Shown here piece by piece: positions 1 to 49,794 of a stretch of 64,000 bases of DNA. The translations under genes were made by a program, and so were the position numbers. The notes beneath the pieces are model-generated. The model saw only the letters and a program-made list of their open reading frames with translations. It had not been told where the DNA came from and did not search any database. Within the stretch, counting starts at the first letter, position 1. Each line of letters begins with the position of its first letter. Source of the DNA: Botryllus schlosseri (Eukaryota); NCBI GenBank assembly GCA_051294905.1, contig CM119372.1, positions 7,318,001 through 7,382,000 of the forward strand, given 5' to 3'.

Positions 1-295
1 ATCAAAACAGCAATCCCATTGCGACACATACGGTCATATAACACGACGACGCTTACGTTGTACAACATGACGTATGGACGTTGCACGTTGCGACATTGCG
101 GTTCCATTATCCTCTCTCTTTTTTATTGAACTCCATTAGTCCTCGCTATGGAATTAAGCAAACTGAATATTGTCAGCAACTCCGATGCGGCAATAATGCA
201 AACAATGAGGCGTCACGCTGGAATGACTCCGCAGAAATATAATTAGAAAGGTTTTACTGGTGGTGTTAGCATACGTAACGCGATAGAAAGCAGCT

Positions 296-1732: not shown

Positions 1733-2599
1733 TACACTTACTGCGTCAGTAACTTGTCAATTACATTTGTCAAATTAAATCTGAATCGAATCAACTGATT
1801 GTACGAGTGAGGGCAGTGGGAATCATGCTTACGGTTGACTTTAGTTTGGCCTGCATCTAAACGGACTCTTACGTTAGTCGTGTCGATCCAGTTAATGATT
1901 AAGCTGGAAATATTACCGTCATATATTTGCAGACAATCAGCTGCCAGGTCGCACTGAAATTTGGAGGTTAACGAATTCGAAAACGGCTCTAGTTACACTC
2001 AGGAGTGTCGGCGGGCATTATTCGTTGAGCTTTTGTTTATAGATTGTTTTTTATTATAGTATTCCTTTACCGTTGGTCTATTCTTGTGGGGTCATGTCAA
2101 TCAACGAGTACAATAAAAGTTGATAGTACGCATTGCGTAGCGTCACGATGGCAAAATTGACTGATAGCATTTTCGAAACGACCACCGAGTAACACACTGC
2201 TTCAGTACAGCTACTTGTTCCAATGGACTCGGTGCATGATACGATTCTGACGAATGCACACGACCATTAGAATGTCATGACTGATATTCGCATTTATGGC
2301 CATCAGACCGATTTATACTGTAGCCCTCCGCTTAAAAAATATTGTAAATGACTTTTCCTTGTTTGTGTGTACTTGTGTACATTGTAGAGCGGGTAGGAGT
2401 TCGTCATACCATCAATAATTATGACATTTCGACCACTATCATATAGGTTGCTCAATCTAATAGCCATTATGCACAATTGCGCATATACACATTATCATAC
2501 ACCTTTCAATAACCTACCCAGCAACCCCCACCAAAGTGAGATATGCAAAGTAATTATATTTGGACAAAACCTCTAACCATTTACTGACGTCATAAATAT

Positions 2600-7345: not shown

Positions 7346-8336
7346 GCTATAATGCTATATCTATGTACGGTCGCGAGATCGGCTGTACGCGAATTATATG
7401 CTGCTGGGCCTCGAAATTTAGGAACAAGGTCTAAGCAAACTTAACTACAAGAAGCGAGACCTTGTTGACAACGGAGTTACACCGTGTTTATGACGTGCGA
7501 CGATCACAAACTTGCCTTCAACAGTGGAGGTATTAATGCGCCGACTGGTTTTATAAGTGACTGGCAATATTACCATATCAGCAACACTTATCGGTTAGCA
7601 CCGTACGAATCGATTAGCAGCAGTCTGTGATTACCTCACGACAAGTGACGATGAGAAGACTCCCACCAAGTCTGCAAACATCAACAAGTGTCAGTTAGCA
7701 TGACGGGAATACTTTAAATAGTCTTCACTTAACGTAAGCTAACTGGTGTCAGAGGTGATGCTGTAATCTGCTATCATACCATCTAGCTTTCTACTAATGA
7801 TGTCATATTCAAACTACCCAAATCTAGGATCATTATTTGCAATAAAACACATGGTATTTCAAAGGTCAAATCGCTTGAACAATTTTCAATATTGACAACG
7901 AAGATCATCAATCCATGAAAGTCTAGCACAAGAACACAGTTACAAAAAAATCCTTAACGAAGTATTGCAACCAATTATAATTGTAGACCTAAACTTGCTG
8001 CATTTGCGTCTGGCTTCGTGATACCTAAGTGTAATAATTAGGACATGCATTATGCGTCTCATGGGAAAGTCCATCCCACCACCGCGTGCACCAAGAGATT
8101 TCGTGATTCTTCTTGATTGTTACAGAGTTTATAATATTCAAGTCTAATATTTTTGAAGAATAGCATCAGATTTGATGAACTTTGCTTGGTGTGGAAGGCA
8201 GGGCTTGTAATCAATTTTGAAAGTGTCACTTCCCCCAATTTGTGGTAGGATAAGTTCAATAACTTCTTAACTGAATTTTTCAGTTTCCAATATATCCTCT
8301 CACATATACCGAATGCAAATGCAATAGAGAACTCGG

Positions 8337-8584
8337 TTATAAATGTGGATCAAAAGTGGCATCATATCTTTGACTTGGTCGTAATGTGTTCGACTTTTTC
8401 CATTTCATTCGTCGGTTCTGAAACCAGATTTTGATTTGTCGCTCGGTGAGACTCAGATCTTGAGCGATCTCGATTCTTCTGCGCCTCGTCAGATATTGGT
8501 TAAAGTGAAATTCCTTCTCCAATTCCAAAGTCTGAAACCTAGTGTAGGCGGTTCTCGGTCGTTTAAGCTGATCTGTTGTCTGGT
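8337..8584 (-). CDS. Hox5: Hox gene (PG5-like) exon 2, homeobox
   Basis: Acceptor TTTTTGCAG, then (N)[65 protein letters not shown]...PHL*. Phase matches the phase-1 donor after 29224. An Antp-class homeodomain is certain; the paralogy group is less so. Confidence 0.9.
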
Positions 8585-9004
8585 CTGCAAAAAATATTGG
8601 TCGTAATATTACATCCGCTTTATCTACTTCTCTTAATTTTTATCATAGGTACCAAACTTCTTACATGTAAGGAGGGTACTTTTTTGCTTTACGATGTCGT
8701 CATTACTTGCTACGGTACAGACATAACTGACAAGGCATGATTTTATCAACAATTGGTGTCTTCACTTTATATTTCATGAATGAGCCTGTAGACAGGTGTT
8801 GTTTTTCAATTGAATTTAAGAAAGAGACAATCGGTCTAGTTTCGATGATCAAATAATTTTCCTTTCCCACTAAAAATGGTCGTACCGTATATGACAAAAG
8901 GATAATAATGCCAGTTTTACCTTCTTATCAGTTTTTAATCAATGACCATATTATAGAGCCCCATGCAACGAGGAACTCATGATGCTACTGTTATTAGTAG
9001 GATG

Positions 9005-9535
9005 ATTTTTGTCAAAATTGTAGCGTTAAGTCAAAAGATCTCAAAACTGACAACCTGAATTTCGTTTGTATCGTAGATTTTGCACTGTCGGTGAACTTAT
9101 CATTTGACATTTTACAACTTGTAGCCTACTTTATCGGCCTACCCTTGTAGACGGTCCATTGTCTGCTCATTGTGAATCATAGACATTCAAATGAAACAAA
9201 TAGGTTTACATGGTGTTATGCTGAACGTACTTCAATATCCTAGCTGAAGCAAGACTGCGTGGGCATTGCATGGTTCTTATATCACGAAGCGCATGATGAA
9301 AAATTATGATGTAGACAGCATTGTCAGAGTAAAGCAACACGGTTTGTCACCAGCAGTGTACACACAACTTCAGTGTTGTCAGCCGACAACTGATGCTGTT
9401 GAACGTTCTTTCTCCATTGTTGACAAGCTACTTAGTAAGGACAGACACTTTCTACCGAAAATGCAAGAAAGTATCTTTCTTTGTGTACTAAAACAAATTT
9501 GATTTATTTCTGCCATAATACGTAACGTATCTACT
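9005..9535 (+). mobile_element. Degraded hAT transposase 3' remnant
   Basis: ORF 9266-9502 contains PTTDAVERSFS..KLLSKDR, like the hAT C-terminal dimerisation region. A second copy lies at ~33890-34044 plus ~35551-35975. Boundaries approximate. Confidence 0.6.
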
Positions 9536-9649
9536 GGTTGCGGCCCCTCGTCGTCATCCTGGTCCGTACCGGATTCTCACTGGTGTGACAAATAAATGAT
9601 TGATCGATTGATTATTATTTTTTGTTGTGATTGTCAGGTTTCCATGACA

Positions 9650-9799
9650 ATGTAATTGAAATTGTAATTGAGCAAAATTTTTATCAAATTACAATTATAA
9701 TTACAATTACACAAAATAGAAATGCTTCAATTACAATTACATGAAAAAATGTTATAATTACATTCAGCTCAATTACAAATTATAATTGATCCCACTCTG
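9650..9799. repeat. AATTAC/GTAATT motif array, probable truncated MITE end
   Basis: Inverted then direct (C)AATTAC repeats ending in GATCCCACTCTG. No matching left end or TSD seen. Confidence 0.5.
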
Positions 9800-10092
9800 A
9801 TGTACAGTACATGTATGTGGGGCGTGAGTAGTAGGGTTTGATCAAATATACGCAGGCCCTCAGGCTATTTAGAATGTAAACTCTCTCATAATATAATTTG
9901 CGGTGGACTATGCCCGGTTTATGCAGTAGGTTATAGGCTCGATTCCCACTTATTCTGTTATGTGTATTTTCCTGGATATTCTATTATGTATATTTGTATT
10001 AGTGAAATGCGACTTGATAATATTAGTGCGTTAACTTTCGAGAAATAATTTTTGTATATTTCGGACTATGTATGTTCGCGAAGACTGTAATT

Positions 10093-10245
10093 AGCGAGTC
10101 TAATGAATATAACGACAGACAACAAGTTAGTTGAACGAACACCTTCGCCGCAGGTACGCGATCACCGACGTTATAATGATAGGGACAAATTAGCCGCATG
10201 AAAGCGAGTCTAATGAATATAACGACAGACAACAAGTTAGTTGAA
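10093..10245. repeat. ~43-bp direct repeat pair near the element end (mirror at ~26560-26712)
   Basis: AGCGAGTCTAATGAATATAACGACAGACAACAAGTTAGTTGAA occurs twice, ~110 bp apart. Confidence 0.85.
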
Positions 10246-11805
10246 AAGTAAAACTAATCGTGACCGGGGAAATTAGAGTCGCTGCACCATTTTACAGGCA
10301 GTCTCACACACTTTGCTGCATCTGAGCTTCGTACTAATACATGCATAATTTTGGCATGACGAGAATACGGGTAATACGGTCAATTAACGCCGGAGGCGAG
10401 TCATTTAAACCTTGTTGCTAGATAATACCGCTTTCGGCTACAAAAAAGTTGCCCTGCAAGAAAAAATAGAAGCCCTATGCAAAAGTCGATATTGCTTTGT
10501 GATGATTTTGATGTTGTTCCATACCGATTGGGAAGATAGCACACCTAATTTCGTAACTAACTACAAAATCTCTAGTAACGTAGTAAGACGCATAATGGAA
10601 TTTACGCAAAATCGGTATTGCTATGCGATAATTTTGATCACTATGTTTTGATAATGACTTGCTTCCGAGAAATAAATAACATTCATTATACGTTAGATGA
10701 TACTTTTCCTTGATATTCTATCATGTGTATTTAGGACTAATGCGACATCACTATGTTTACGACAGGTCTGATTTGAACACACACTAATTTTGCGTATCAC
10801 ACCACAAACTGCGCAAGCCTTCAAAGTTGATAAGTAAACAAGTATTTGCACTCCATCAGAATACTAAAGTATAGCTTTTCGCGTAGATATACCTAATACT
10901 AATGTGTTTATGATTTCAGATTGCTTCAACTTCATGAAATTTTCAGTATTAAACAGAAATATAGACCTAGATGACTAACTTTTATTCGTAAATAGCTACT
11001 TCTACCTTAATTTGATGGATTTATCTGAGATCATTGCTTTACTTAATCTCTCCAAGATGTGCATTATACATGTACGTCACCATCGAGACCCTCTGGCTAT
11101 AACTATCTGGCAGTATAATTGCAGCAAATACTCGGGCACTAATTTTAAAGTAGCGTAGGTATCTAAATGAGCTCTGAGTCGCTGTTATTTTGAATCTGAC
11201 CATGGAGTCAACACCACTATTACCTTCGCTCACTGATGAAAAAGATGAAAGTTATTAAAGAAAGCAGATTTGTATGAAAACTCGTTAAATAGAAGTAAAA
11301 GTAGCCTAGAAACATAACAACTTACTGAAAAATCGAACATAACCACTTACTCACTTTGAAATCTCAACTTGTACTTGTATTCGTACTTTACCTTTACACG
11401 TCGTCTTTGTATAATAAATACTAATTATATTAAAAATAAATAAAAAGCACGAAAAATTACATTTTATCCCGGAACGTAGCAAAAAAAAAAAATCGTATAA
11501 ACTTTGTAAAGTAGATAGAAAACTACACCATTCCGATGCAGTGAAGACTCTTACACTCAGGATTTTGTGCAGTACATACTAATTTTACATTGCGGAGTAT
11601 TCCATAAACGTTTATCCAGTGATCCTCCTTCTATTTTCAATCACGATCCGTTTATTATTCCAGGCTTCGAACCCCGTACCCAGTACGTTTTATGGGGATT
11701 AATATTTTTAGATTAAATATAGCGTGTCGAGACTTCGTGAAACTTACTTGGAAATAGTTATTTCTACCCTAATTTAATAGATTTCTCAGACATCGTAGCA
11801 ACGGA

Positions 11806-11861
11806 ACTGGGTTGAGAGAGCGGTTAAGGCGTTGGACTTAAGTTTCAATGAACAAGTGTTC
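11806..11861 (+). pseudogene. tRNA-Leu(TAA)-derived 5' fragment
   Basis: ACTGGGT..GAGCGGTTAAGGCGTTGGACTTAAGTTTCAATGAACAAGTGTTC: D-loop/A-box, anticodon arm with TAA and long variable arm. T-arm absent. Confidence 0.7.
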
Positions 11862-11866
11862 TAAGG

Positions 11867-14207
11867 CAGTGGTTCTCAACCGCCGGTCCGCGGACCGGTG
11901 CCGGTCCGTGACGACATTCCTACCGGTCCGCAGGTATGTTACAAATTTATACATTAATTTCAAGATGCGATGTTGAAGGCTTGTCCATTGATAAAATAAA
12001 TATAGCCTAACGTCAAATTTTAAACAGATTAAAAACTTCGTGAGGTAACATTAGGGCTGGAAACATGTTCGATCTGACTTAAAGTTCAGGACGTTTCATT
12101 TGACGTCATGCGAGCAAAAGTACAGAATAGATACGAGCTCACTCATCGCTAGACATCGTAGTTTAATCATTGGTTTTCGATTCATTCATTTTATGCAGGA
12201 CCGTAACTGGGGCACCCCAAACCATCCATTTGAAGAGGTGCCGAGCCTGAAGAGAGCCCAAAATTATTTCGCAAATGAACATGATTCATAGCGTATTTAT
12301 TTGAAACTTTGTCCAACATTTTTTCAATTTCTTTTCGGGCTTTGTACGATTTAGTTTCCCGTGTCCCTACATTTTTTGCTTATTAGGTGCCATTCTCCGA
12401 GAAATACGCATGATTTATAGGTATTTCGGCGTCAGCCATTACCGCGCCACGACGTACCAACACATAATGTAGTTTAGGTTGACATGGGGCTCCTAAAGGT
12501 GGGCCAAAAATTCGACCGCGAGAAAACCGCTTCAGTCGTGAATGATCGAAAATTTTCGCTATTGTCGCGATAAGCTACGTAAACTCTCTGTTTACGCTGG
12601 ATAGAATGGATGTGATCACGCGTACATGTGAAAACATCCAGACGAGTATAAAGTCTGGAGGTGAATCCCCGGATGATTGACTTATCGCCCTGTTGAGGCT
12701 CCTAGATCAACGTTTTTGGGGTAGGCTGACGAAGTGCTTTTCGGCCCGGATTTGCGGATGGCCGGTATAACTGCAGTAATGTGTTTTCTTGCGACGCGCA
12801 TTGTGTTTGTAGTGGTCCTAATAAACTGCGTCTGGTGGCAGTGGGAAATGATCGAGCAAGGTAGCACTACAAGGCAGTGTTGGGATCAAGTCACTACCTT
12901 CAGGTCACGAGTCATTTCGAGTCATTGCACATTTTGACTCGAGTCAAGTCAAGTCAATCGATTTTCAAAGGTGACTCGAGTCAAGTCAAGTCACTCGATT
13001 TTTGGAGGTGACTCGAGTCAAGTCGAGTCAAGTCAAGTCAAATCACAAGTCAAGTCACAATTCAAGTCAAGTTGCCTTTTCGAAGTATGGGGCATGATTA
13101 CGTCACTGCATTTTGCTAGCTGTCTGAAGTACATATTGAGTGGTCATTGATTCTGAACCGCTAAACGAATATAGAGTTGAATATACACGCAGGAAGGCGC
13201 TGTATCGCTCACATATATGTAGAAATGATAAACTACGTAAATAATTACATAGCCTCAGTCGATAGTTACTGGCCAAAATAGAGAATAGAGATTTGATTGA
13301 GAACGAATTGATAAGACGCAATACATTATCCATGATAGAATTCGAGCCTGCGCCAATGGTTGGGGACTATACAAACAAAAACATATTCGATTTCAATAAA
13401 ACATGAGGTTTTTGTTAAGGTGAGAACAGAAATATACATTTTGCCATTCAATTACTTTACTACTAGTTTACGACAACGTGAGCCATCAGCTTCGATCCCT
13501 TCGTTTGCGGTCAATTTATTTGTGAGATAACAATTGAGGCTCAGTAAAATGCCCGATCATTGAATGTGGCCGCAGTCTCATGGGTTACACCAGCGTTTCG
13601 TGAAAATCCAAACATATTACAGATACAGATTTTTATCGACACCGATTACTTGATGACTTGAAATTGACTCGTGAATTTTGCTCCGAGTCTCGAGTCAATC
13701 CACATTTCTGATACGATGAGTCAAGTCAAGTGAAGTCATTTTAGCAAAGTGACTCGAGTCAAGTCAAGTCATACGAAAAAGGTGACTCGAGTCTGACTCG
13801 AGTCATCCCAACACTGCTACAAGGTGCGTGGTTGACTCCGATACACTTCTTCTCTCGATATTGTCAGAGAGAGGAATATTATTGAAGTTGGCGTGGCCGG
13901 TTAAACCCACGGCTTTCGGCATGAAAGACTGTAAACGACCCTCGGCGGTAGCACGTTTAGCTGGACAAGCCAATTTTATCTCGACTCGGCAGACTTACTA
14001 ACTACCATAAGATCACATGAATTTCATCATGAATATAATTAAATACGATCAAAATCCTCTAAATGTCACTCTCTAGCACCATATAATTGCAAAAACGGTT
14101 GCATACTTTACATTTTGGCTTCATCTCAATTTTAAAAGTTCGCCGGTCCGCCAGACATTTTTTGAAATTTTACCGGTCCGCGAAGCGGAAAAGGTTGAGA
14201 ACCACTG
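11867..14207. mobile_element. Non-autonomous hAT (Buster/Charlie-type) element present only in the left palindrome arm
   Basis: TIR CAGTGGTTCTCAACC / GGTTGAGAACCACTG, perfect TSD TTCTAAGG. Single empty site CCTTAGAA at 24939-24946 in the right arm. Homologous to 50382-54092. Confidence 0.95.
12875..13816. mobile_element. hAT MITE with GACTCGAGTC/CAAGT subterminal arrays, nested in 11867-14207
   Basis: TIR CAGTGTTGGGAT / ATCCCAACACTG, perfect TSD CTACAAGG. Empty site at ~53703-53710 in the other host copy. Confidence 0.95.
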
Positions 14208-14373
14208 TTCTAAGGGACTCATGTTTTAAGATAACCTAAACGCAAAGTGCACGAATTTCCATATTGATCAAATACCACAAACTTTGCTTGCTTTCAGAGT
14301 TAGTAACCAAGCGCGTAACAGAATTTACCTAAAAAAGTCAGTACTCCGAAAATTTTGTAAAGTCTAGCTTTTT

Positions 14374-14434
14374 GGCGTTGGACTTAAGTTCCAATGAACA
14401 AGTGTTCACGTAGGTTCGAATCCCACACCCACTA
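14374..14434 (+). pseudogene. tRNA-Leu(TAA)-derived fragment lacking the 5' end
   Basis: GGCGTTGGACTTAAGTTCCAATGAACAAGTGTTCACGTAGGTTCGAATCCCACACCCACTA: anticodon arm, variable arm, B-box GGTTCGAATCC and 3' acceptor strand. Confidence 0.75.
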
Positions 14435-15211
14435 CGTTTTACGAGAATTAATAGTTTTAGATTCAAATTTAGCGTATAGAGTACTTTTTCTGCCGTTTCA
14501 GCGCATTAGAGACGTTTACACTATGGATTTCGCGAGCTTTACTTTAGTTTTATAAATTAACGTAAAACTAGTCATTTCCGAGTAAGTAAAGCGTTCGTAT
14601 TGTAGGTTCAATTCTGCTTAATACTATAATTATCATGGAGTTGAAGCAGTCCAATATCAAAAACACTCGAAAGTATTTGTTGCATATAGCTAAAAACCTA
14701 ATTGAGTACTCTGAAGAAGTACAAGTAGCACAGTTTGTGGTATTCGTATGACATCGAAATTTAGCTAACCAGAACGTATACTTGAATACTCCGAAATGTA
14801 CAAGTACTTTACCTTTACACGACGTTTCTGTAAAATGAATACTAATTTTATTAAAAAATAAAAAAGCACGGAAAATTACACTTTATCCCAAACCACCAGA
14901 ATACTAAAGTAGCTTATCGCGTTTATGTACCTAATACTAAAGTGTTTATGATTTCAGTTCGCTTCAACTTCATGACATTTACAGTATTACACAGAAGTAT
15001 AGACTTAGAATGCTAACTTTCTTCGTTAATAGCTACTTCTAGCTTAACTTAAGGGATTTATCTTAGATCATTGCTTTACTTAATCTCTCCAAAATGTGCA
15101 TTATACACGTACGTCACCATCGAATCCCTCTGGCTATAACTATATGGCAGTATAATTGCGGCAAATACTCGAGAACTAATTTTAAAGTAGCTTTGGTATC
15201 TAAATGAGCTC

Positions 15212-16972
15212 TAGGACATTGTGAATATGCAGCATACAAAATTTAATCACACATTTCATGATGGAACAACTTTAAAACTAACGCAGTCGAATACCGACTT
15301 TTACGCATATCTGTTTTGCCTGAAAATAGCATATACTTATGCATAGTCAATTTTAATAGCAGAATTACCATGCTAAACATTGAATTCCCACCTTGAAAGT
15401 TGGTAGGCGGTTACAGGACATTATACCAATGCACCATACCAAATTCCGTCACACATTTCATGATGGAACAACTTTAAAACTAACGCGGCTCTACGTCGAC
15501 TTTTTGCGTACATCTGTTTTGCGGGAGCGTATAGCACGTACCCATACATAGTCAACTTTACTAACGAAATTACCATGCTTAACATTGAATCCCAACTCGA
15601 AACTTGATACGTAGTTGTAGGACATTATGGCAATGCACCAGGCTAAATTTCATCGCACATCTAATCATGGAACACCTTTAAAATTAACGCGGTGGAATAC
15701 CGACTTTTACGCATATCTGTTTTGCGTGAACATAGCATAGACCTACACATAGTCAATTTTAATAACAGAATTAGCATGCTAAACATTGAATTCCCACCTT
15801 GAAAGTTGGTAGGCGGTTACAGGACATTATACCAATGCACCATACCAAATTCCGTCACACATTTCATGATGGAACAACTTTAAAACTAACGCGGCTCTAC
15901 ATCGACTTTTTGCGTACATCTGTTTTGCGGGAGCGTATAGCACGTACCCATACATAGTCAACTTTACTAGCGAAATTACCATGCTTAACATTGAATCCTA
16001 ACTCGAAACTTGATACGTAGTTGTAGGACATTATGGCAATGCACCAGGCTAAATTTCATCACACATCTAATCATGGAACACCTTTAAAATTAACGCGGTG
16101 GAATACCGACTTTTACGCATATCTGTTTTGCGTGAACATAGCATAGACCTATACATAGTCAATTTTAATAACAGAATTAGCATGCTAAACATTAAATTCT
16201 CATCTTGAACGTTGGTACACAGTTGTAGGATATTATAACAATGCGCCATACCGAATTCCATCACACATTTCAGGATGTAACACCTTCAAAACGAACGCAG
16301 TTCTTTGTAGACTTTTGCGTAAATTTGTTGTTCGGTAGCGTAGCACGTACCTATACATATTAGGCTTTAATAACGGAAGTACCATGCTAATAATCAAATC
16401 CCCACCCTGAAACTTGTCACGCAGTTGTATGACATTGTGAAAATACACCATACCAAATTTCGTCAGACATTTCATGATGTAACACCTTTAAAACCAACGC
16501 AGCTCTATACCGACTTTTGGCCAAATCTGTTTTTCCGTAGCGTAGCACGTACCTATACATAGTCAACTTTAATAACGGGATTACCATGTTAATAATCGAC
16601 TCCCCAACTTGAAACTCGGTACGCAGTTGTAAGACATTATGAAAAGGCACCTTGTAAAATTTTGTTACGCATTTCATGATTGAACAACTTCAAAACTAAC
16701 GCAGTTCTATACCGACTTTTGCGGGAGCGTAGCACGTACCTATGCATAGTCAATTTTAATAACGGAATTACCATGCTAAACATTGAATGCGCAACTTGAA
16801 AATAGGTTCACGGGTGTAGTACATTATGACAATGGAACATATCAAATTTCTTCACACATTTCATGATGGAACACCTTTAAAACTAACGCAGTTCTATACC
16901 AACTTCCACGTGAATCTGGTTGAGGGAGCGTAGCACGTACGTATGCGTAGTCAACTTCAATGACGGAATTAC
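15212..16972. repeat. ~202-204-bp tandem array, ~9 units, with a 406-bp dimeric higher-order repeat (left arm)
   Basis: GGACATT-type unit starts at about 15214, 15416, 15620, 15822, 16026, 16228, 16430, 16632 and 16819. Alternate units in ~15360-16190 are nearly identical. Confidence 0.92.
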
Positions 16973-18249
16973 AGATGTAATTAGGTTTCAACACTTTTAC
17001 AATGATTCGTCTTGCTTCCTATAACGTCCCACTCGAAGCCCTCGTTATTAGGCTGTGATCTCAGCCTGAGCTATGTCTAGAAGCCTACGGGTTTATGCAA
17101 ATTGTTTCGATTTATTCTACCCGTTTCAATTTGAGATAAGGAAGCCCATTTCACTTAATGTATCGATGCCTACGGTAGGCTACTCTACAAAATTTTCTGA
17201 TTAATTCTCCCTATGTTAATTTATCATCAGAAAGATGATTTGACTCCTAAAGTACGAAATATTTGTTCGCTTGAGCTAAGCTGCAGGGCTTGGAGTGGAA
17301 TTTTACGAGGTATGCGGACTCATTTCGAGGGGCTCTATGCCATAGGAGCATACTTCACGCTCCAATTCGATTCCCACACATTACATGTAATTACTAACAG
17401 AACCATTGAGTACCAGCCTTGACATTTTACGTAGTACTAGATGGCATGTATACAATTTCATGGCATCCGACAGTACGACGGAGACTATCAAAATATCAAA
17501 AGAAGCCCTCTATTCTTTTCTGAAATAATCAAGGTTTTATCAGGACTTCCCTTCATATAAACTCCAGCAGAATCACTACTAACCTCTCAAGTTTACTCAA
17601 TTTACTGTAATTTGATACTCAAGTACTAAATCCCTATTTTCCGCAAGTATGATAGAGGCTGTCGCTCGATACTCAACGCTTCGTAATTTTGCTGGAATAC
17701 AAGTACAATTAGGGATTAAAAAGTAATATAGGTGGTTATGTTTGTAGATTTACACTTCTACTTACCGGTTTTTCAGGAGAAACTACCTACTTTTAGGACT
17801 TTATATTTTAAAGTAGTTTGAAGTTACGTTTGTATCACCTTGGCAAGTGCTATCATCAAAAACTGCTTTTGCTAAACTCTTACACTTTCACTAAACTTCT
17901 AGACTGAATCTTGTAAAGTAGATAGAAAAGGAAAACTATTAACATAAGGTAAGTGAGAAGCACGTCAAATTCCGATTGCATACAAATGCCACAAACTGCG
18001 CTAACTTCCAGAGTTGTTAAGTATAGAATTACTCGTACTTCTTGAGAATACCCAAGTAGGTTTTTTGCCTACATGTATCAAATACTCTCAAGTCCTTATG
18101 ATATTGGAGTACATCAACTTCATGATAGCTACAGTATTAAACAGAAATAGACCTAGAGTACTAACGTTTTTGCGCAGTGAGAGTTTGCAAATTCTCGAAG
18201 TATTTTTGTTATTTTATTGCGATAAGTCATTCTGCAGCGCAAAAAGGCG

Positions 18250-19300
18250 TCTTAGGATATAGATGAAACCAACACCACTCATCAAGACCACCGAAAACAG
18301 TACATTTCAACATTTAGTAGCATTAAATTTCTAGTGATGTACAAGAAGTGATGATTTCCGAGTGAGTTAAAAAGTAAGTATTAAAGCTATAGTTTACCTA
18401 AAAACCGAAACTCTGAAATAGAAGCAGATGCAGTGTAAATAGCTAATCACTTGATTAAGTCTAGTGCAAGCAGATAAAACCTATATTTGAGTACTACAAA
18501 ATGCACGAATACTTCGCTATCGACTCCATCCACGTAAAAAGTGGCTACGGTTTAAAACTACTTTTACCGATACTCGACGGTTCAGCTTTAGATAAAATTC
18601 GGAAACCGAGTAATTTCATAAACACAAGCTAATTAAATGAATTTACTCGAATGTAGTATGCCGCGTTGATAAGATTAATTATAATATACTTATCATGTTA
18701 CAGTGATTTTTCTAGCGTAGAAAATCTTTAAAATGTAGTAAGCAGGCCAATATGAAGATATTCGCTGAGCTGAATAAACATTAAAAATACTCTAGACTAC
18801 TTTATCGGTACTTGACAGTTTCAGTTTTAGATAAAAATTTTCCCTTTCACCTATAATTACAACTCTTCGCTATCTAAACATGTTCAGAATATATTATTTG
18901 AGATGATATCAACCCGCAAAGTACTCAAGTAGCTTTTCGTAGGATATAGATGAAACTGACACCACTCAACAAGACCACTTACCCACTGAAAAAAAGTACA
19001 TTTCAACATTTTAGTAGCAGTAAATTCCTACTAAAGTACAAGAAGTGATGATTTCCGAGTGAGTTAAAAAGTAAGTATTGAAGCTATAGTTTGCTCGAAA
19101 ACCGAAAAACTCTGAAATAGAAGTAGATGCAGTGTAAATAGTTAATCGCTTCATTTAGTATAGCGCAAGCAGGCCTAACCTATTCTTGAGTACCCCAAAA
19201 TGTACTAGTACATCGCTATGTAGTCCCTCCACGTAAAAAGTGACTAGGGTTTAGACTACTTTTTCCATACTTGACAGTTTCAGGTTTAGATAAAATTTGG
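18250..19300. repeat. Diverged ~350-bp internal duplication near the palindrome centre (mirrored in the right arm)
   Basis: TAGGATATAGATGAAAC...TTAGATAAAATT occurs at ~18253-18600 and ~18940-19297. Confidence 0.75.
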
Positions 19301-19555
19301 TGAGACTTTAAATTTTAAAGTAGTTTGAGCTTACGTTTATATCACCTTGACAAGTAACATTATCAGACACGAAAATGATATTATCACCTAATGCAAAAGT
19401 TAACACACGTCAGTGTGCTTAGGAAGTCACGAAAAATTGCTTACTAAGAGAAGTATATTCTTGTATACACAACAGTGGAGAGAATCTTTAAAATGTAGTA
19501 GGCAGGCCGATGGGTATTCGTTGCAATGTATAAGCATAAAAAACATTCCCGCGCG

Positions 19556-19598
19556 TCTTAGTAGTAGGTGGTAGGGTAGGAAGTGTTAGGTTTAGGAG
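19556..19598. other. 43-bp G-rich spacer (loop) at the palindrome centre
   Basis: TCTTAGTAGTAGGTGGTAGGGTAGGAAGTGTTAGGTTTAGGAG, flanked by TTCCCGCGCG and CGCGCGGGAA. Confidence 0.95.
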
Positions 19599-22181
19599 CG
19601 CGCGGGAATGTTTTTTATGCTTATACATTGCAACGAATACCCATCGGCCTGCCTACTACATTTTAAAGATTCTCTCCACTGTTGTGTATACAAGAATATA
19701 CTTCTCTTAGTAAGCAATTTTTCGTGACTTCCTAAGCACACTGACGTGTGTTAACTTTTGCATTAGGTGATAATATCATTTTCGTGTCTGATAATGTTAC
19801 TTGTCAAGGTGATATAAACGTAAGCTCAAACTACTTTAAAATTTAAAGTCTCACCAAATTTTATCTAAACCTGAAACTGTCAAGTATGGAAAAAGTAGTC
19901 TAAACCCTAGTCACTTTTTACGTGGAGGGACTACATAGCGATGTACTAGTACATTTTGGGGTACTCAAGAATAGGTTAGGCCTGCTTGCGCTATACTAAA
20001 TGAAGCGATTAACTATTTACACTGCATCTACTTCTATTTCAGAGTTTTTCGGTTTTCGAGCAAACTATAGCTTCAATACTTACTTTTTAACTCACTCGGA
20101 AATCATCACTTCTTGTACTTTAGTAGGAATTTACTGCTACTAAAATGTTGAAATGTACTTTTTTTCAGTGGGTAAGTGGTCTTGTTGAGTGGTGTCAGTT
20201 TCATCTATATCCTACGAAAAGCTACTTGAGTACTTTGCGGGTTGATATCATCTCAAATAATATATTCTGAACATGTTTAGATAGCGAAGAGTTGTAATTA
20301 TAGGTGAAAGGGAAAATTTTTATCTAAAACTGAAACTGTCAAGTACCGATAAAGTAGTCTAGAGTATTTTTAATGTTTATTCAGCTCAGCGAATATCTTC
20401 ATATTGGCCTGCTTACTACATTTTAAAGATTTTCTACGCTAGAAAAATCACTGTAACATGATAAGTATATTATAATTAATCTTATCAACGCGGCATACTA
20501 CATTCGAGTAAATTCATTTAATTAGCTTGTGTTTATGAAATTACTCGGTTTCCGAATTTTATCTAAAGCTGAACCGTCGAGTATCGGTAAAAGTAGTTTT
20601 AAACCGTAGCCACTTTTTACGTGGATGGAGTCGATAGCGAAGTATTCGTGCATTTTGTAGTACTCAAATATAGGTTTTATCTGCTTGCACTAGACTTAAT
20701 CAAGTGATTAGCTATTTACACTGCATCTGCTTCTATTTCAGAGTTTTCGGTTTTTAGGTAAACTATAGCTTTAATACTTACTTTTTAACTCACTCGGAAA
20801 TCATCACTTCTTGTACATCACTAGAAATTTAATGCTACTAAATGTTGAAATGTACTGTTTTCGGTGGTCTTGATGAGTGGTGTTGGTTTCATCTATATCC
20901 TAAGACGCCTTTTTGCGCTGCAGAATGACTTATCGCAATAAAATAACAAAAATACTTCGAGAATTTGCAAACTCTCACTGCGCAAAAACGTTAGTACTCT
21001 AGGTCTATTTCTGTTTAATACTGTAGCTATCATGAAGTTGATGTACTCCAATATCATAAGGACTTGAGAGTATTTGATACATGTAGGCAAAAAACCTACT
21101 TGGGTATTCTCAAGAAGTACGAGTAATTCTATACTTAACAACTCTGGAAGTTAGCGCAGTTTGTGGCATTTGTATGCAATCGGAATTTGCGTGCTTCTCA
21201 CTTACCTTATGTTAATAGTTTTCCTTTTCTATCTACTTTACAAGATTCAGTCTAGAAGTTTAGTGAAAGTGTAAGAGTTTAGCAAAAGCAGTTTTTGATG
21301 ATAGCACTTGCCAAGGTGATACAAACGTAACTTCAAACTACTTTAAAATATAAAGTCCTAAAAGTAGGTAGTTTCTCCTGAAAAACCGGTAAGTAGAAGT
21401 GTAAATCTACAAACATAACCACCTATATTACTTTTTAATCCCTAATTGTACTTGTATTCCAGCAAAATTACGAAGCGTTGAGTATCGAGCGACAGCCTCT
21501 ATCATACTTGCGGAAAATAGGGATTTAGTACTTGAGTATCAAATTACAGTAAATTGAGTAAACTTGAGAGGTTAGTAGTGATTCTGCTGGAGTTTATATG
21601 AAGGGAAGTCCTGATAAAACCTTGATTATTTCAGAAAAGAATAGAGGGCTTCTTTTGATATTTTGATAGTCTCCGTCGTACTGTCGGATGCCATGAAATT
21701 GTATACATGCCATCTAGTACTACGTAAAATGTCAAGGCTGGTACTCAATGGTTCTGTTAGTAATTACATGTAATGTGTGGGAATCGAATTGGAGCGTGAA
21801 GTATGCTCCTATGGCATAGAGCCCCTCGAAATGAGTCCGCATACCTCGTAAAATTCCACTCCAAGCCCTGCAGCTTAGCTCAAGCGAACAAATATTTCGT
21901 ACTTTAGGAGTCAAATCATCTTTCTGATGATAAATTAACATAGGGAGAATTAATCAGAAAATTTTGTAGAGTAGCCTACCGTAGGCATCGATACATTAAG
22001 TGAAATGGGCTTCCTTATCTCAAATTGAAACGGGTAGAATAAATCGAAACAATTTGCATAAACCCGTAGGCTTCTAGACATAGCTCAGGCTGAGATCACA
22101 GCCTAATAACGAGGGCTTCGAGTGGGACGTTATAGGAAGCAAGACGAATCATTGTAAAAGTGTTGAAACCTAATTACATCT

Positions 22182-23942
22182 GTAATTCCGTCATTGAAGT
22201 TGACTACGCATACGTACGTGCTACGCTCCCTCAACCAGATTCACGTGGAAGTTGGTATAGAACTGCGTTAGTTTTAAAGGTGTTCCATCATGAAATGTGT
22301 GAAGAAATTTGATATGTTCCATTGTCATAATGTACTACACCCGTGAACCTATTTTCAAGTTGCGCATTCAATGTTTAGCATGGTAATTCCGTTATTAAAA
22401 TTGACTATGCATAGGTACGTGCTACGCTCCCGCAAAAGTCGGTATAGAACTGCGTTAGTTTTGAAGTTGTTCAATCATGAAATGCGTAACAAAATTTTAC
22501 AAGGTGCCTTTTCATAATGTCTTACAACTGCGTACCGAGTTTCAAGTTGGGGAGTCGATTATTAACATGGTAATCCCGTTATTAAAGTTGACTATGTATA
22601 GGTACGTGCTACGCTACGGAAAAACAGATTTGGCCAAAAGTCGGTATAGAGCTGCGTTGGTTTTAAAGGTGTTACATCATGAAATGTCTGACGAAATTTG
22701 GTATGGTGTATTTTCACAATGTCATACAACTGCGTGACAAGTTTCAGGGTGGGGATTTGATTATTAGCATGGTACTTCCGTTATTAAAGCCTAATATGTA
22801 TAGGTACGTGCTACGCTACCGAACAACAAATTTACGCAAAAGTCTACAAAGAACTGCGTTCGTTTTGAAGGTGTTACATCCTGAAATGTGTGATGGAATT
22901 CGGTATGGCGCATTGTTATAATATCCTACAACTGTGTACCAACGTTCAAGATGAGAATTTAATGTTTAGCATGCTAATTCTGTTATTAAAATTGACTATG
23001 TATAGGTCTATGCTATGTTCACGCAAAACAGATATGCGTAAAAGTCGGTATTCCACCGCGTTAATTTTAAAGGTGTTCCATGATTAGATGTGTGATGAAA
23101 TTTAGCCTGGTGCATTGCCATAATGTCCTACAACTACGTATCAAGTTTCGAGTTAGGATTCAATGTTAAGCATGGTAATTTCGCTAGTAAAGTTGACTAT
23201 GTATGGGTACGTGCTATACGCTCCCGCAAAACAGATGTACGCAAAAAGTCGATGTAGAGCCGCGTTAGTTTTAAAGTTGTTCCATCATGAAATGTGTGAC
23301 GGAATTTGGTATGGTGCATTGGTATAATGTCCTGTAACCGCCTACCAACTTTCAAGGTGGGAATTCAATGTTTAGCATGCTAATTCTGTTATTAAAATTG
23401 ACTATGTGTAGGTCTATGCTATGTTCACGCAAAACAGATATGCGTAAAAGTCGGTATTCCACCGCGTTAATTTTAAAGGTGTTCCATGATTAGATGTGCG
23501 ATGAAATTTAGCCTGGTGCATTGCCATAATGTCCTACAACTACGTATCAAGTTTCGAGTTGGGATTCAATGTTAAGCATGGTAATTTCGTTAGTAAAGTT
23601 GACTATGTATGGGTACGTGCTATACGCTCCCGCAAAACAGATGTACGCAAAAAGTCGACGTAGAGCCGCGTTAGTTTTAAAGTTGTTCCATCATGAAATG
23701 TGTGACGGAATTTGGTATGGTGCATTGGTATAATGTCCTGTAACCGCCTACCAACTTTCAAGGTGGGAATTCAATGTTTAGCATGGTAATTCTGCTATTA
23801 AAATTGACTATGCATAAGTATATGCTATTTTCAGGCAAAACAGATATGCGTAAAAGTCGGTATTCGACTGCGTTAGTTTTAAAGTTGTTCCATCATGAAA
23901 TGTGTGATTAAATTTTGTATGCTGCATATTCACAATGTCCTA
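22182..23942. repeat. ~202-204-bp tandem array (right-arm mirror)
   Basis: Reverse complement of 15212-16972, with identical mirrored ORF translations. Confidence 0.92.
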
Positions 23943-24719
23943 GAGCTCATTTAGATACCAAAGCTACTTTAAAATTAGTTCTCGAGTATTTGCCGCAATT
24001 ATACTGCCATATAGTTATAGCCAGAGGGATTCGATGGTGACGTACGTGTATAATGCACATTTTGGAGAGATTAAGTAAAGCAATGATCTAAGATAAATCC
24101 CTTAAGTTAAGCTAGAAGTAGCTATTAACGAAGAAAGTTAGCATTCTAAGTCTATACTTCTGTGTAATACTGTAAATGTCATGAAGTTGAAGCGAACTGA
24201 AATCATAAACACTTTAGTATTAGGTACATAAACGCGATAAGCTACTTTAGTATTCTGGTGGTTTGGGATAAAGTGTAATTTTCCGTGCTTTTTTATTTTT
24301 TAATAAAATTAGTATTCATTTTACAGAAACGTCGTGTAAAGGTAAAGTACTTGTACATTTCGGAGTATTCAAGTATACGTTCTGGTTAGCTAAATTTCGA
24401 TGTCATACGAATACCACAAACTGTGCTACTTGTACTTCTTCAGAGTACTCAATTAGGTTTTTAGCTATATGCAACAAATACTTTCGAGTGTTTTTGATAT
24501 TGGACTGCTTCAACTCCATGATAATTATAGTATTAAGCAGAATTGAACCTACAATACGAACGCTTTACTTACTCGGAAATGACTAGTTTTACGTTAATTT
24601 ATAAAACTAAAGTAAAGCTCGCGAAATCCATAGTGTAAACGTCTCTAATGCGCTGAAACGGCAGAAAAAGTACTCTATACGCTAAATTTGAATCTAAAAC
24701 TATTAATTCTCGTAAAACG

Positions 24720-24780
24720 TAGTGGGTGTGGGATTCGAACCTACGTGAACACTTGTTCATTGGAACTTAAGTCCAACGCC
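24720..24780 (-). pseudogene. tRNA-Leu(TAA)-derived fragment (mirror of 14374-14434)
   Basis: Reverse complement of the left-arm copy. Confidence 0.75.
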
Positions 24781-24943
24781 AAAAAGCTAGACTTTACAAA
24801 ATTTTCGGAGTACTGACTTTTTTAGGTAAATTCTGTTACGCGCTTGGTTACTAACTCTGAAAGCAAGCAAAGTTTGTGGTATTTGATCAATATGGAAATT
24901 CGTGCACTTTGCGTTTAGGTTATCTTAAAACATGAGTCCCTTA

Positions 24944-24999
24944 GAACACTTGTTCATTGAAACTTAAGTCCAACGCCTTAACCGCTCTCTCAACCCAGT
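24944..24999 (-). pseudogene. tRNA-Leu(TAA)-derived 5' fragment (mirror of 11806-11861)
   Basis: Reverse complement of the left-arm copy. It is also truncated here although no hAT insertion is present. Confidence 0.7.
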
Positions 25000-27900
25000 T
25001 CCGTTGCTACGATGTCTGAGAAATCTAATAAATTAGGGTAGAAATAACTATTTCCAAGTAAGTTTCACGAAGTCTCGATACGCTATATTTAATCTAAAAA
25101 TATTAATCCCCATAAAACGTACTGGGTACGGGGTTCGAAGCCTGGAATAATAAACGGATCGTGATTGAAAATAGAAGGAGGATCACTGGATAAACGTTTA
25201 TGGAATACTCCGCAATGTAAAATTAGTATGTACTGCACAAAATCCTGAGTGTAAGAGTCTTCACTGCATCGGAATGGTGTAGTTTTCTATCTACTTTACA
25301 AAGTTTATACGATTTTTTTTTTTTTTGCTACGTTCCGGGATAAAATGTAATTTTTCGTGCTTTTTATTTATTTTTAATATAATTAGTATTTATTATACAA
25401 AGACGACGTGTAAAGGTAAAGTACGAATACAAGTACAAGTTGAGATTTCAAAGTGAGTAAGTGGTTATGTTCGATTTTTCAGTAAGTTGTTATGTTTCTA
25501 GGCTACTTTTACTTCTATTTAACGAGTTTTCATACAAATCTGCTTTCTTTAATAACTTTCATCTTTTTCATCAGTGAGCGAAGGTAATAGTGGTGTTGAC
25601 TCCATGGTCAGATTCAAAATAACAGCGACTCAGAGCTCATTTAGATACCTACGCTACTTTAAAATTAGTGCCCGAGTATTTGCTGCAATTATACTGCCAG
25701 ATAGTTATAGCCAGAGGGTCTCGATGGTGACGTACATGTATAATGCACATCTTGGAGAGATTAAGTAAAGCAATGATCTCAGATAAATCCATCAAATTAA
25801 GGTAGAAGTAGCTATTTACGAATAAAAGTTAGTAATCTAGGTCTATATTTCTGTTTAATACTGAAAATTTCATGAAGTTGAAGCAATCTGAAATCATAAA
25901 CACATTAGTATTAGGTATATCTACGCGAAAAGCTACTTTAGTATTCTGATGGAGTGCAAATACTTGTTTACTTATCAACTTTGAAGGCTTGCGCAGTTTG
26001 TGGTGTGATACGCAAAATTAGTGTGTGTTCAAATCAGACCTGTCGTAAACATAGTGATGTCGCATTAGTCCTAAATACACATGATAGAATATCAAGGAAA
26101 AGTATCATCTAACGTATAATGAATGTTATTTATTTCTCGGAAGCAAGTCATTATCAAAACATAGTGATCAAAATTATCGCATAGCAATACCGATTTTGCG
26201 TAAATTCCATTATGCGTCTTACTACGTTACTAGAGATTTTGTAGTTAGTTACGAAATTAGGTGTGCTATCTTCCCAATCGGTATGGAACAACATCAAAAT
26301 CATCACAAAGCAATATCGACTTTTGCATAGGGCTTCTATTTTTTCTTGCAGGGCAACTTTTTTGTAGCCGAAAGCGGTATTATCTAGCAACAAGGTTTAA
26401 ATGACTCGCCTCCGGCGTTAATTGACCGTATTACCCGTATTCTCGTCATGCCAAAATTATGCATGTATTAGTACGAAGCTCAGATGCAGCAAAGTGTGTG
26501 AGACTGCCTGTAAAATGGTGCAGCGACTCTAATTTCCCCGGTCACGATTAGTTTTACTTTTCAACTAACTTGTTGTCTGTCGTTATATTCATTAGACTCG
26601 CTTTCATGCGGCTAATTTGTCCCTATCATTATAACGTCGGTGATCGCGTACCTGCGGCGAAGGTGTTCGTTCAACTAACTTGTTGTCTGTCGTTATATTC
26701 ATTAGACTCGCTAATTACAGTCTTCGCGAACATACATAGTCCGAAATATACAAAAATTATTTCTCGAAAGTTAACGCACTAATATTATCAAGTCGCATTT
26801 CACTAATACAAATATACATAATAGAATATCCAGGAAAATACACATAACAGAATAAGTGGGAATCGAGCCTATAACCTACTGCATAAACCGGGCATAGTCC
26901 ACCGCAAATTATATTATGAGAGAGTTTACATTCTAAATAGCCTGAGGGCCTGCGTATATTTGATCAAACCCTACTACTGGCGTGAGCATCAACACTTAAT
27001 TATGTCCAATATTATATTCATTTATAGTGGAATCAACTTTTGATACTTCAATCGGGGTAACTTTGGGTCAAGAGTGGGGTGGACTCGCAGTCGAGTTACG
27101 TGTGATTTTTAAACACCGATAACGAATAATCCTCGCCTTTCACTGCAGACGTGAATTGATTATAATCGCCCCGTCAGGTGATTTTTCACCATCGTTGACG
27201 CTAAACGCTGACATCGTTAAGGAATTCCTGATATTGATTTTAAAAAGTAACACCTTTATCGTTATCTGAGCGAGTAAAGTCATATAACAACAAGCTGCTT
27301 TCAACTTGGAAAAGTGTCTAAGTTTAAATAAAGTTCAACATAAGTTATAATGTATCTTTTATAAATGATCTGTTCTACAGCATGCTAGGAAAAAAAGTTT
27401 ACGAGATCGAGGCAGTATCATGTCATGGTGAATATATTTCATAAAATCGACTATAGGTATGTGAAATCATTATAATGTCGGTAGGTCAATTGTGTACAGA
27501 CGTTTAAATTTTACATAGACTACACGGCAATGTCCTCTACAGTAAACGAGAATGGGACATTGCACGCTATATGCAGTAAAGATACATTTAACAAGTCAAT
27601 ATAATCGTTAAAATGAGCGCGAAAATTGATATACTGTCAGAAATTTGACACTTGTTTGAATTTCGTAAGGAGCAATTATGTTTTAGATAATTCCTTCGCT
27701 AGCAGTAAAGCGAACGTGAGCGTGAAAGTGAATGTGAATTTTACAAGTCGAGATTAACTAGATTGCACATAACCTTCGGGTTTTAATATTTTCTCGTTAT
27801 AAAATGCATATCAAAATTCTGAACCGCAAAGAAGGTTCTTAAAGTAACCACATTGTGGGCAAAGTGATTTGATTGATGGCTCCCAATGTGAGTGATAGGT

Positions 27901-28049
27901 GCCAGTTGACCTGTGCGAAACGATATCGACAGTAGCGTATAAGACAAAGAAGATGTTTGCGGCGCAGAAAATACGAAAACGATTTCGCAATGAAGTGATT
28001 TCTCAGTGCCATTGTGACATCACAGAATTTGACATCAAAGTGTCATGGG

Positions 28050-28647
28050 AAGGGCAAGTTTTTGCAACTTTTGCAACTTTTCTTTACAATTTCCGGCAGC
28101 TTCCTAAATACTCATAAGTTACGTAGTATGGTATTTTAAGCTGTTTGGGGAATCTTATATTGCAACGTTTTGCAAATTTTCTTCATTTTTTTATGCAACT
28201 TCGTGCAACTTTTGCGATTTTTTATGCAACTAACTTTTTACTGTATATATTTGGCCCTATATGTAAATAGATCGCTTGATTAATTCACTGCCATTTAAAT
28301 TTGAGATCCTTTCTGGTTTGACGTACATCCTGGCCTAGTAGGCCATGCGTACATCCAGGCTAGACCGCCGAAAATTATACTTTTACTGGGTCAATTTTAT
28401 AAGGCTATTGATTTTATTGAAGTGGCCAACATCAAGTTTTGCTACAGTGCCTTGAATACAGAACGATTGGATTATCTCCTACCCTAATAATTTCAAGGAA
28501 CTTGTCCATAAATGCAACTACTTGATGCAACTTTTGTGAAAATTAAACGTATTTTTAGTGCAACTTTTGTGAAAATTAAATGCAACTTTTTACTGTAACT
28601 TTTGTGAAAAAATTTCCGCGGATTTGACTGCAACAAAACTTGCCTTA
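28050..28647. mobile_element. Probable MITE with TGCAACTTTT subterminal arrays
   Basis: Ends AGGGCAAGTTTT / AAAACTTGCCTT and many GCAACTT motifs near both ends. TSD not recognisable. Confidence 0.55.
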
Positions 28648-29223
28648 GTTAAGAGTTAACAACGTCTCTTCGTGTACCAATGTTATAACCAGAACAGAAA
28701 TTACGTGACGCATCGATGTCTATAATAGTGGTTCTTAGCCTTCGCAAACCTGCGGAATACTATACTTACTTACTTACTATAATAATATGCAAGCCTTCAC
28801 GGAACCCCAAATTTTCGATGAGTCACAAATACAAAAATCGACCACAATGCACGCCTATAACCACACATCTGACGCACAAAATGAACTGCGGATCAACAGA
28901 GTGTTCTTGATCGGTGGATAATCTGAGAATTATCATCGAAAATTCACGTAACTCCGCTTCTACTGGTCGGAATTGAGTCAAATTTGTTTTGCATCGTCTT
29001 TGAAGACAGCTCAACAATTTGATGGGGTTGGCAAAATATTTTGAATTTTTTTTTTAATTTTCCCTAATAAATTAATTAATTGGATCTGCGGAGTCCTATA
29101 CTTGTCAGAATTGAACCAAATTTGGTGTGCTGCGTTTTTTAGGGTAACCTGACAATTTGGTCAGTGAATGGCTGGAATCCGGGAAAAAAAGTTATTTTTG
29201 AACGGCCTAAACATGATACGAAC

Positions 29224-29752
29224 TTGGTTTGGTATGAATCCTTCTCATCCAAGGGTAGATAGCGGTATCTTTCCCTGCCGTCATATTCATCCATGGAAAA
29301 CTGTTGATTGTCGAGCCTGGATTGCTGCCATCTCGAATTTCAGAAACTTGAAGAGAATGTTCTTGTGACGAATTCCTCATCGTATTATAGTTCGGTGTCG
29401 GTGTGAATTCTGTGTGCTTTTTATTGGAGATCTCTTGATTTGTTTCTACTTGTGGCAAGCAACATGGATTCGACCCGATTCTGTCTTGCAAATCTAGATT
29501 TGACGAGACGAGATTGCCGTGTCCTGGACGATGGCCGAAATGTTCTGTTGCGAGCAGTGAGTTTGATAGCCAACTGTTCGATCCATATGTGGATTTTTCA
29601 TTCCCCTGTCGAGCATAATCTGAAAAGTTTCCTCCCGGGGTATTGATAAGTGACGAGGATGCTGATGTTTGACTGCTGCTGAAATAATCGCCAATTTCGC
29701 AGTCACGGTATGCATACCGAGGATAATCAGAGTCCGTATTATTGACTGACAT
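29224..29752 (-). CDS. Hox5: Hox gene (PG5-like) exon 1
   Basis: MSVNNTDSDYPRY...SFPWMNMTAGKDTAIYPWMRRIHTKP, with a PG5-like IYPWMRRIH hexapeptide followed by donor A|GTTCGT (phase 1, compatible with the homeobox exon). Start Met is inferred; the ORF stays open further upstream. Confidence 0.85.
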
Positions 29753-39300: not shown

Positions 39301-39379
39301 CTGCTATGCTATGGTCATTGGATACCGAAAAAGCAACGTGTAATTGTAAACTGCAATATGTATTTCTTATACGCAATAC

Positions 39380-49653: not shown

Positions 49654-49794
49654 CCCGTATGCTTTCGGGCCATAGAGCGATTTCGCGATTTCACTTTATC
49701 GTTTGCGTGCTCGTGTCGTAAACAACGCCGCGATGGAGTATTTTTACTGATATTACCGCGATATGCCAGCATTTATGTCAAGTTATGTTTATAT

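Follow-up and report, generated by a model that had tools for sequence, protein, structure and literature searches.

Mobile DNA inside or beside Hox genes has been described in several animals. Human Hox clusters show repeat exclusion (~2% repeats); lizard clusters hold ~15% repeats, with hAT elements in introns and a ~9-kb HoxC1 intron (PMC9498476), and the Hox1 region of a chaetognath carries polymorphic insertions, including a ~90-bp palindrome adjoining Hox1 (PMC2997562). Tunicate Hox clusters are fragmented (PMC4122922, PMC7337526, PMC5882950). Intronic fold-back elements of Drosophila are hyper-edited (PMC5502491, PMC5558901); for the element FB4, hyper-editing was predicted for 12 copies and checked by clones in one (PMC5502491). 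Mavericks (Polintons) have the ends 5'-(AGT)2//(ACT)2-3' or (AG)3//(CT)3 and a mean length of 16.9 kb, with a range of 12.7-24.6 kb (PMC8097293). Here we describe a 64,000-nt stretch of the genome of the ascidian Botryllus schlosseri (NCBI GenBank assembly GCA_051294905.1, contig CM119372.1, positions 7,318,001 to 7,382,000 of the forward strand; hereafter the window), in which a long palindromic element with Maverick-type ends is inserted into the single intron of a Hox5-type gene. We read it, with a probability of about 0.6, as a non-autonomous palindromic Maverick-type transposon that arrived recently in the Hox5 intron and is a tolerated passenger there rather than a regulatory device.

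When position 29224 was joined to 8584, a single open frame was obtained, with 13 residues from YPWM to the homeodomain. For the comparison of linker lengths, three of 65 Hox5-like matches were dropped as their count of homeodomain motifs was not exactly one; among the remaining 62 a linker of 13 residues was the most frequent value (39 matches), with 14 residues in 12, six residues in one and the hexapeptide motif absent in 10. The homeodomain shares 51-53 of its 60 residues with named vertebrate HoxA5/HoxB5 proteins and 48 with a HoxC4. Exon 1 is 76% identical to a protein relative, P0001, with the match ending just beyond the predicted donor; the start codon of exon 1 was assigned from this relative. 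Pairing of exon 1 with a different homeobox was ruled out within the window, whose six frames hold no other homeobox or hexapeptide motif. The open frame, the 13-residue linker, the presence of a sole homeobox in the window and the P0001 match up to the donor make the predicted gene model well supported. An earlier note on this DNA had claimed two exons with intact frames and phase-compatible splice sites, 20,639 nt apart; the open frame and the linker length agree with that claim.

The predicted protein has a group-5-type homeodomain, an upstream hexapeptide and a linker of the length expected for Hox group 5 (13-14 residues), the latter encoded across one intron. Since the orthology of tunicate central Hox genes has been termed ambiguous (PMC7337526), 'Hox5-type' is the safest name for what is recognized here by sequence. 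Exon 1 contains two hexapeptide-like motifs, FPWM and YPWM (29246-29299, reverse strand), located 14 residues apart and both retained in P0001. No Hox neighbors were found by a six-frame motif scan of the window, which extends 34 kb upstream and 8 kb downstream of the gene, and no metagenome contig was found to contain the exon 1 locus (none of 202 pattern matches was confirmed).

Subtraction of the element and one copy of its target site leaves an intron of 3,481 nt; the inflation is 5.9-fold, as had been proposed in round figures (~3.5 kb, about sixfold). The element begins 2,239 nt from the donor and ends 1,236 nt from the acceptor. A hairpin formed by it covers neither splice site, both being >1.2 kb outside.

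The two arms of the element pair over 2,040 + 5,340 = 7,380 bp, with only three substitutions and four small indels in total. The hairpin of ~7.4 kb suggested earlier was correct in the number of base pairs that could form; as a continuous duplex it does not stand, because an insertion of 2,349 nt, present in the left arm only, splits it. Any transcript crossing the intron could thus yield kilobases of double-stranded RNA (dsRNA). The longest open reading frame (ORF) of the right arm has 104 aa, compared with 104 +/- 16 aa in 100 shuffles. Of the 15 ORFs of at least 60 aa in the element, five were scanned and none of the five matched a Pfam family; no Rfam family matched anywhere in the window. 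The element shows no sign of coding. Its central loop contains a copy of the first nine bases of the element and, after it, degenerate repeats that are G/T-rich on one strand; the 9-base copy may be a relic terminus marking a fold-back origin. The 202-bp tandem array of each arm (15212-16972 and 22182-23942) has a higher-order period of 406 bp.

The Maverick end motif, a 6-bp target duplication and terminal inverted repeats (TIRs) are all present, and the length of 17.2 kb is typical. The TIRs, at ~7.4 kb, are far longer than the 46-1,447 bp of vertebrate Mavericks (PMC8097293). Core genes of Mavericks (protein-primed polymerase, integrase, ATPase, protease and capsid proteins) were not found, the ORFs being at chance level and those scanned free of Pfam families. 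Non-autonomous Polintons were reportedly described by Kapitonov and Jurka in 2006. Judged by its ends and target duplication, the element is very probably linked to Mavericks; its membership as a non-autonomous Maverick derivative is likely, not proven.

The insertion that interrupts the left arm is for the most part a non-coding TIR element with an 8-bp target duplication. The right arm retains the corresponding empty site, and in RNA this element would stand as a one-sided bulge. A second TIR element is nested inside the first; a related copy of the outer one, near 53546-54098, lacks the nested element and has a single 8-bp target. The two nested elements have features of hAT-type miniature inverted-repeat transposable elements (8-bp target duplication, short TIRs), and from these ends and duplications we take them to be hAT-like. 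The outer of the two reached the one arm after the palindrome had been inserted.

Between the arms the substitution rate is 0.04% (95% range 0.008-0.12%). In flanking single-copy DNA, three contigs of other haplotypes show 2.5%, 4.5% and 5.3% divergence from the window. On the assumption that the arms started out identical, the element arrived 21-635 times more recently than the haplotypes split; given such an age, a neutral allele is expected at a frequency under ~0.5%. We infer that the insertion is polymorphic, quite probably a young allele of low frequency; a fixed feature of the gene is less likely.

Read mapping covered the region 7000-11900 in four of the 24 listed runs (with ~6% of run X23 used), a region that stops short of the loop, of the element's right junction and of the splice donor. 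X1 is a DNA run and X23 a raw RNA run. X5 was taken as RNA on the basis of a contig without the 60-nt intron 7146-7205 of the neighboring filament gene, and X6 as DNA on the basis of a contig that retains this intron and spans the Hox acceptor. Neither X5 nor X23 is known to come from a carrier of the insertion. In X6 we observed a haplotype that matches the window over 7000-8793 and then has no depth (8794-8967); because this match ends there, the remaining intron also seems to be structurally polymorphic.

In X1, depth in the 11 arm bins exceeded that in 12 single-copy bins ~300-fold at the median and 59-fold at the lowest, which is not a copy number but a rough sign that the element family is abundant. 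In X5, depth was 99-3,007 in the arm bins versus 2.5-7.9 on the homeobox exon, so most of the family RNA comes from loci other than Hox5. Taken relative to X1 and with two junction bins excluded, the arm bins of X5 exceeded five ordinary repeat bins ~3.7-fold (p 0.009), an excess not shared by X23 (p 0.21); the family is transcribed somewhere. The homeobox exon itself had a depth <1 in X23, with zero reads over 8476-8639. In X5, depth on this exon and the 3' region was 2-8, versus ~0.5 expected from DNA-like background.

Table 1. Features of the Hox5-type gene and its intron in the window
Feature	Position	Strand	Remarks
Hox5-like coding exon 1 (predicted)	29224..29752	-	open frame; YPWM hexapeptide and second FPWM motif
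Predicted intron, GT..AG, phase 1	8585..29223	-	20,639 nt; donor after 29224, acceptor before 8584
Homeobox exon to stop codon	8337..8584	-	Pfam PF00046, E 7e-24
Gene-less palindromic element, 17,152 bp	9827..26978	.	ends AGTAGT...ACTACT
Left target-site duplication GGCGTG	9821..9826	.	6 bp
Right target-site duplication GGCGTG	26979..26984	.	6 bp, perfect copy of left
Outer left arm	9827..11866	.	pairs with 24939-26978, 2,040 bp; 3 substitutions, 2 small indels
Inner left arm	14216..19555	.	pairs with 19599-24938, 5,340 bp with two 1-bp indels; up to 3,749 bp without a difference
Central loop, 43 nt	19556..19598	.	local fold computed
Uninterrupted right arm, transcribed first	19599..26978	.	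arm alignment
Tandem array of 202 bp, ~8.8 units	15212..16972	.	mirrored at 22182-23942
Non-coding TIR element	11867..14207	.	left arm only; 8-bp target duplication TTCTAAGG at 11859-11866, 14208-14215
Second TIR element, inside the first	12875..13816	.	8-bp target duplication CTACAAGG
High-copy repeats, remaining 3' intron	8968..9787	.	DNA depth 16,600-162,000 (run X1) vs 12-40 in single-copy bins

In the mechanism that we propose for a carrier allele, the polymerase would cross the first 2,239 nt of intron, then the right arm and then the loop. The left arm would zip onto the right arm from the loop outward to form 5.3 kb of duplex, would halt over the 2,349-nt bulge and would resume for 2,040 nt, leaving 1,236 nt before the acceptor; the duplex as a whole is what we infer from the arm alignment. 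If transcription gets through, ADAR would likely hyper-edit this duplex. Such editing is plausible since there are precedents in Drosophila and in the ascidian Ciona savignyi, where hyper-editing is present and repeats are barely transcribed (2.6% at 2x RNA cover; PMC9989829). With repeats so silent, a host promoter offers a way to expose the duplex. Genes of Caenorhabditis elegans that are predicted to form dsRNA structures show high expression (PMC6239182).

As both splice sites are distant from the arms, the hairpin would probably be removed with the intron as a whole, and normal Hox5 mRNA would appear minutes late, perhaps in a smaller amount. The extra transcription delay is ~4-17 minutes at assumed rates of 4 to 1 kb per minute. 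Since every transcribed member of this abundant family makes its own hairpin, the Hox5 locus probably adds little to silencing of the family. The idea of the Hox locus as a source of silencing RNAs therefore lost ground: with an abundant family and with arm RNA in X5 far above the Hox exon, it is unlikely to be the main source. Tolerance of the insertion at this locus is partly explained by the results of Ciona Hox1, 3 and 5 knock-down, which left the motor-circuit neurons tested unaffected (PMC5054439).

Several observations weigh against the tolerated-passenger reading. The consensus of splice donors is GTRAGT, and the donor GTTCGT deviates from it and looks weak; the element also adds 13 AATAAA sites on its sense strand. 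The sole X5 contig that covers 8571 crosses the acceptor unspliced (8455-8657, depth 7.85); it is maybe pre-mRNA, with contigs dropping rarer forms, and it counts weakly against efficient splicing there. No reads over the 29224-8584 junction were among those listed for X5 and X23, neither a known carrier, and no listed loose end falls at 8584. A full-length spliced protein relative was not found among 30 candidates, of which only P0001 remained, an exon-1 read-through product (the one match in another search as well). There was no A-to-G excess: the ratio (A>G+T>C):(G>A+C>T) was 31:36 in X23 and 32:24 in X5, compared with 103:82 in X1+X6 (Fisher p 0.20 and 0.88), a weak count given that reads <90% alike were excluded, the arm depth in X23 was at most ~5, the DNA was unmatched and the carrier status is not established. 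The terminus of the element had no exact match in viral and metagenome contigs, which thus yielded no autonomous partner sharing its ends. As for age, old arms could look young owing to gene conversion or to assembly polishing, both arms share letters that differ from common family contigs, and the polymorphism is deduced, an empty site not being among the displayed contigs.

The principal rival to this reading, though unlikely, is that the allele is null or weakened by the insertion: early poly(A) cleavage in the element, cryptic splicing or heterochromatin seeded by the repeats would block full-length Hox5 mRNA. Such an allele would persist in heterozygotes, given a small role of ascidian Hox5, and would produce few complete hairpin transcripts. 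The weak-looking donor speaks for it, as do the 13 AATAAA and 27 GTRAG sites of the sense strand, the hardly transcribed repeats of C. savignyi (PMC9989829), the absence of Hox5, to which no function was assigned, from a Botrylloides reference transcriptome (PMC5882950) and the altered splicing and expression of C. elegans eri-6/7 upon Polinton insertions (bioRxiv 2024.01.15.575659). Still, both exons are intact and the splice sites lie far from the element, and the motif densities are ordinary: AATAAA and two splice-like motifs occur at 0.76, 1.57 and 1.11 per kb in the element and at 0.74, 1.53 and 1.71 per kb in the upstream 34 kb, the background density for upstream DNA. An old insertion, fixed or common, with arms homogenized by gene conversion or palindrome repair and the hairpin intron standing as a tolerated or selected feature, is improbable. 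Time enough for a 2.3-kb element to enter one arm would fit with it, and so would the letters shared by the arms and not by common family contigs; on the other hand, the target duplication is perfect, the nested TIR element and the one around it could have come in together, the seven small differences between the arms persist along with the 2.3-kb insertion, and the adjoining intron varies between haplotypes (the X6 match stops after 8793).

It is highly improbable that the locus acts as a silencer of the family in trans, with Hox5 transcription yielding a 7.4-kb duplex that Dicer would process into small interfering RNAs (siRNAs) against the family, maybe against Hox5 too, and against any helper sharing the element ends. 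Here the duplex is nearly perfect and longer than in two precedents: a ~2-kb Hoppel fold-back in an intron undergoes editing, and its siRNAs silence other Hoppels (PMC5558901), and the ~4-kb hairpin of Mu killer is produced by read-through from a flanking gene (PMC3440606). Dicer, however, faces competition from ADAR editing (PMC5558901), and Ciona Hox5 expression has been described in larval neural cells (PMC5054439). Both RNA runs show little signal on the Hox exon, and in X5 the family signal is far higher; with every family copy being its own hairpin, this low signal makes such a role unlikely for the Hox5 locus. Heritable silencing, moreover, requires germline expression. That the palindrome could be an assembly artefact of fold-back (chimeric) long reads we hardly believe: the arms are 99.9% alike and no junction-spanning read is among those displayed, but the flanks are distinct and unique and carry the 6-bp duplication, one arm has an insertion with its own 8-bp duplication, the arms differ in seven places and enclose a unique 43-nt loop, and the Hox gene continues correctly beyond the element.

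The surroundings of the element are rich in repeats. Of the 1,242 nt left of the intron on its 3' side, 820 are high-copy repeat, with matches of 81% and 93% at other places in the window, and 27% of the DNA upstream of the Hox gene matches other parts of the window. Upstream of exon 1, two direct copies of 1.5 kb (37791-39310 and 48139-49663) are 97.9% identical and constitute another young mobile element. Hox introns had been characterized in the earlier note as usually short and repeat-poor; this expectation did not carry over to the present gene, as it reflects mainly a mammal-type pattern, tunicate clusters are fragmented and high-copy repeats make up ~0.8 kb of the intron outside the element. 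In view of the broken tunicate clusters, the repeats upstream and in the intron and the ending of the X6 haplotype, a transposon in this Hox5 intron is unsurprising; its size and shape are surprising.

Two other genes were observed in the window on the downstream side of the Hox gene. An uninterrupted ORF of a succinate-semialdehyde dehydrogenase (287-1732, 478 aa from ATG) matches a protein of Styela clava at 72% (the best named match), one of Ciona at 64% and those of fish at 59%. Its closest matches have 478-480 aa while Styela has a 523-aa form as well, so the ORF may encode a shorter paralogue that lacks a presequence. An intermediate-filament gene (3807-7490, reverse strand) is located on the same strand as the Hox gene and begins ~850 nt past the Hox stop codon; its 60-nt intron is spliced in X5. 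A tie between Hox5 and the filament gene through an operon or outron was dropped: the filament gene has a TATA-like motif at about 7549-7556, RNA coverage begins near 7490 and no acceptor is found there.

The insertion illustrates the tolerance of an ascidian Hox gene for mobile DNA. A carrier would provide a natural chordate test of editing versus dicing, of splicing across a giant hairpin and of transcription delay, with the one-arm bulge as an internal unpaired control. A speculative and improbable extension is a chordate 'Maverick killer', in which a Hox5 promoter-driven 7.4-kb duplex would supply siRNAs against palindromic satellites and their helper, with feedback through a Hox5 epiallele; if true, its duplex would exceed the published killer hairpins cited here, of 2 and 4 kb (PMC5558901, PMC3440606). 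On the same speculative reading, intronic copies of the family would be polymorphic dsRNA sources across the genome that limit their own spread. Short of a carrier and its RNA, this is just another transposon that has inserted into a genome full of repeats, and the family is of more interest than the site.

Among known systems, Mavericks share with the element the 5'-(AGT)2//(ACT)2-3' ends, the 6-bp duplication and a length inside 12.7-24.6 kb (PMC8097293); the element differs in having no core genes and in an inverted repeat that spans nearly all of it (7.4 kb per arm). The lizard and chaetognath loci likewise have mobile elements in or beside Hox genes, but no multi-kilobase perfect palindrome within a Hox intron is described in the available parts of those reports (PMC9498476, PMC2997562). 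Neither a multi-kilobase palindrome in a Hox intron nor a wholly palindromic Maverick appeared in a literature search that ran over titles and abstract openings and included few subscription papers. Hoppel killer (Hok) of Drosophila melanogaster is also an intronic perfect transposon fold-back of an abundant family, transcribed from a host promoter; it measures ~2 kb, consists of two adjacent inverted copies and has been demonstrated to be edited and to silence through siRNAs (PMC5558901, PMC5502491), whereas the element described here, known from DNA sequence, is a single self-palindrome of 7.4 kb in a family whose copies are all hairpins. FB4 elements in Drosophila introns are, similarly, nearly all inverted repeat, internally repetitive and located within host genes, but the copies listed are of ~1-4 kb (PMC5502491), compared with 17 kb, Maverick-type ends and a 6-bp duplication here. 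In maize, Mu killer likewise forms a long hairpin when transcription from a host gene continues into inverted transposon sequence; it contains transposase sequence and was established as a dominant silencer by a genetic test (PMC3440606), while the present element is non-coding. The consequences proposed for the Botryllus insertion thus have direct precedents; its duplex length, Maverick-type ends and Hox setting are unusual.

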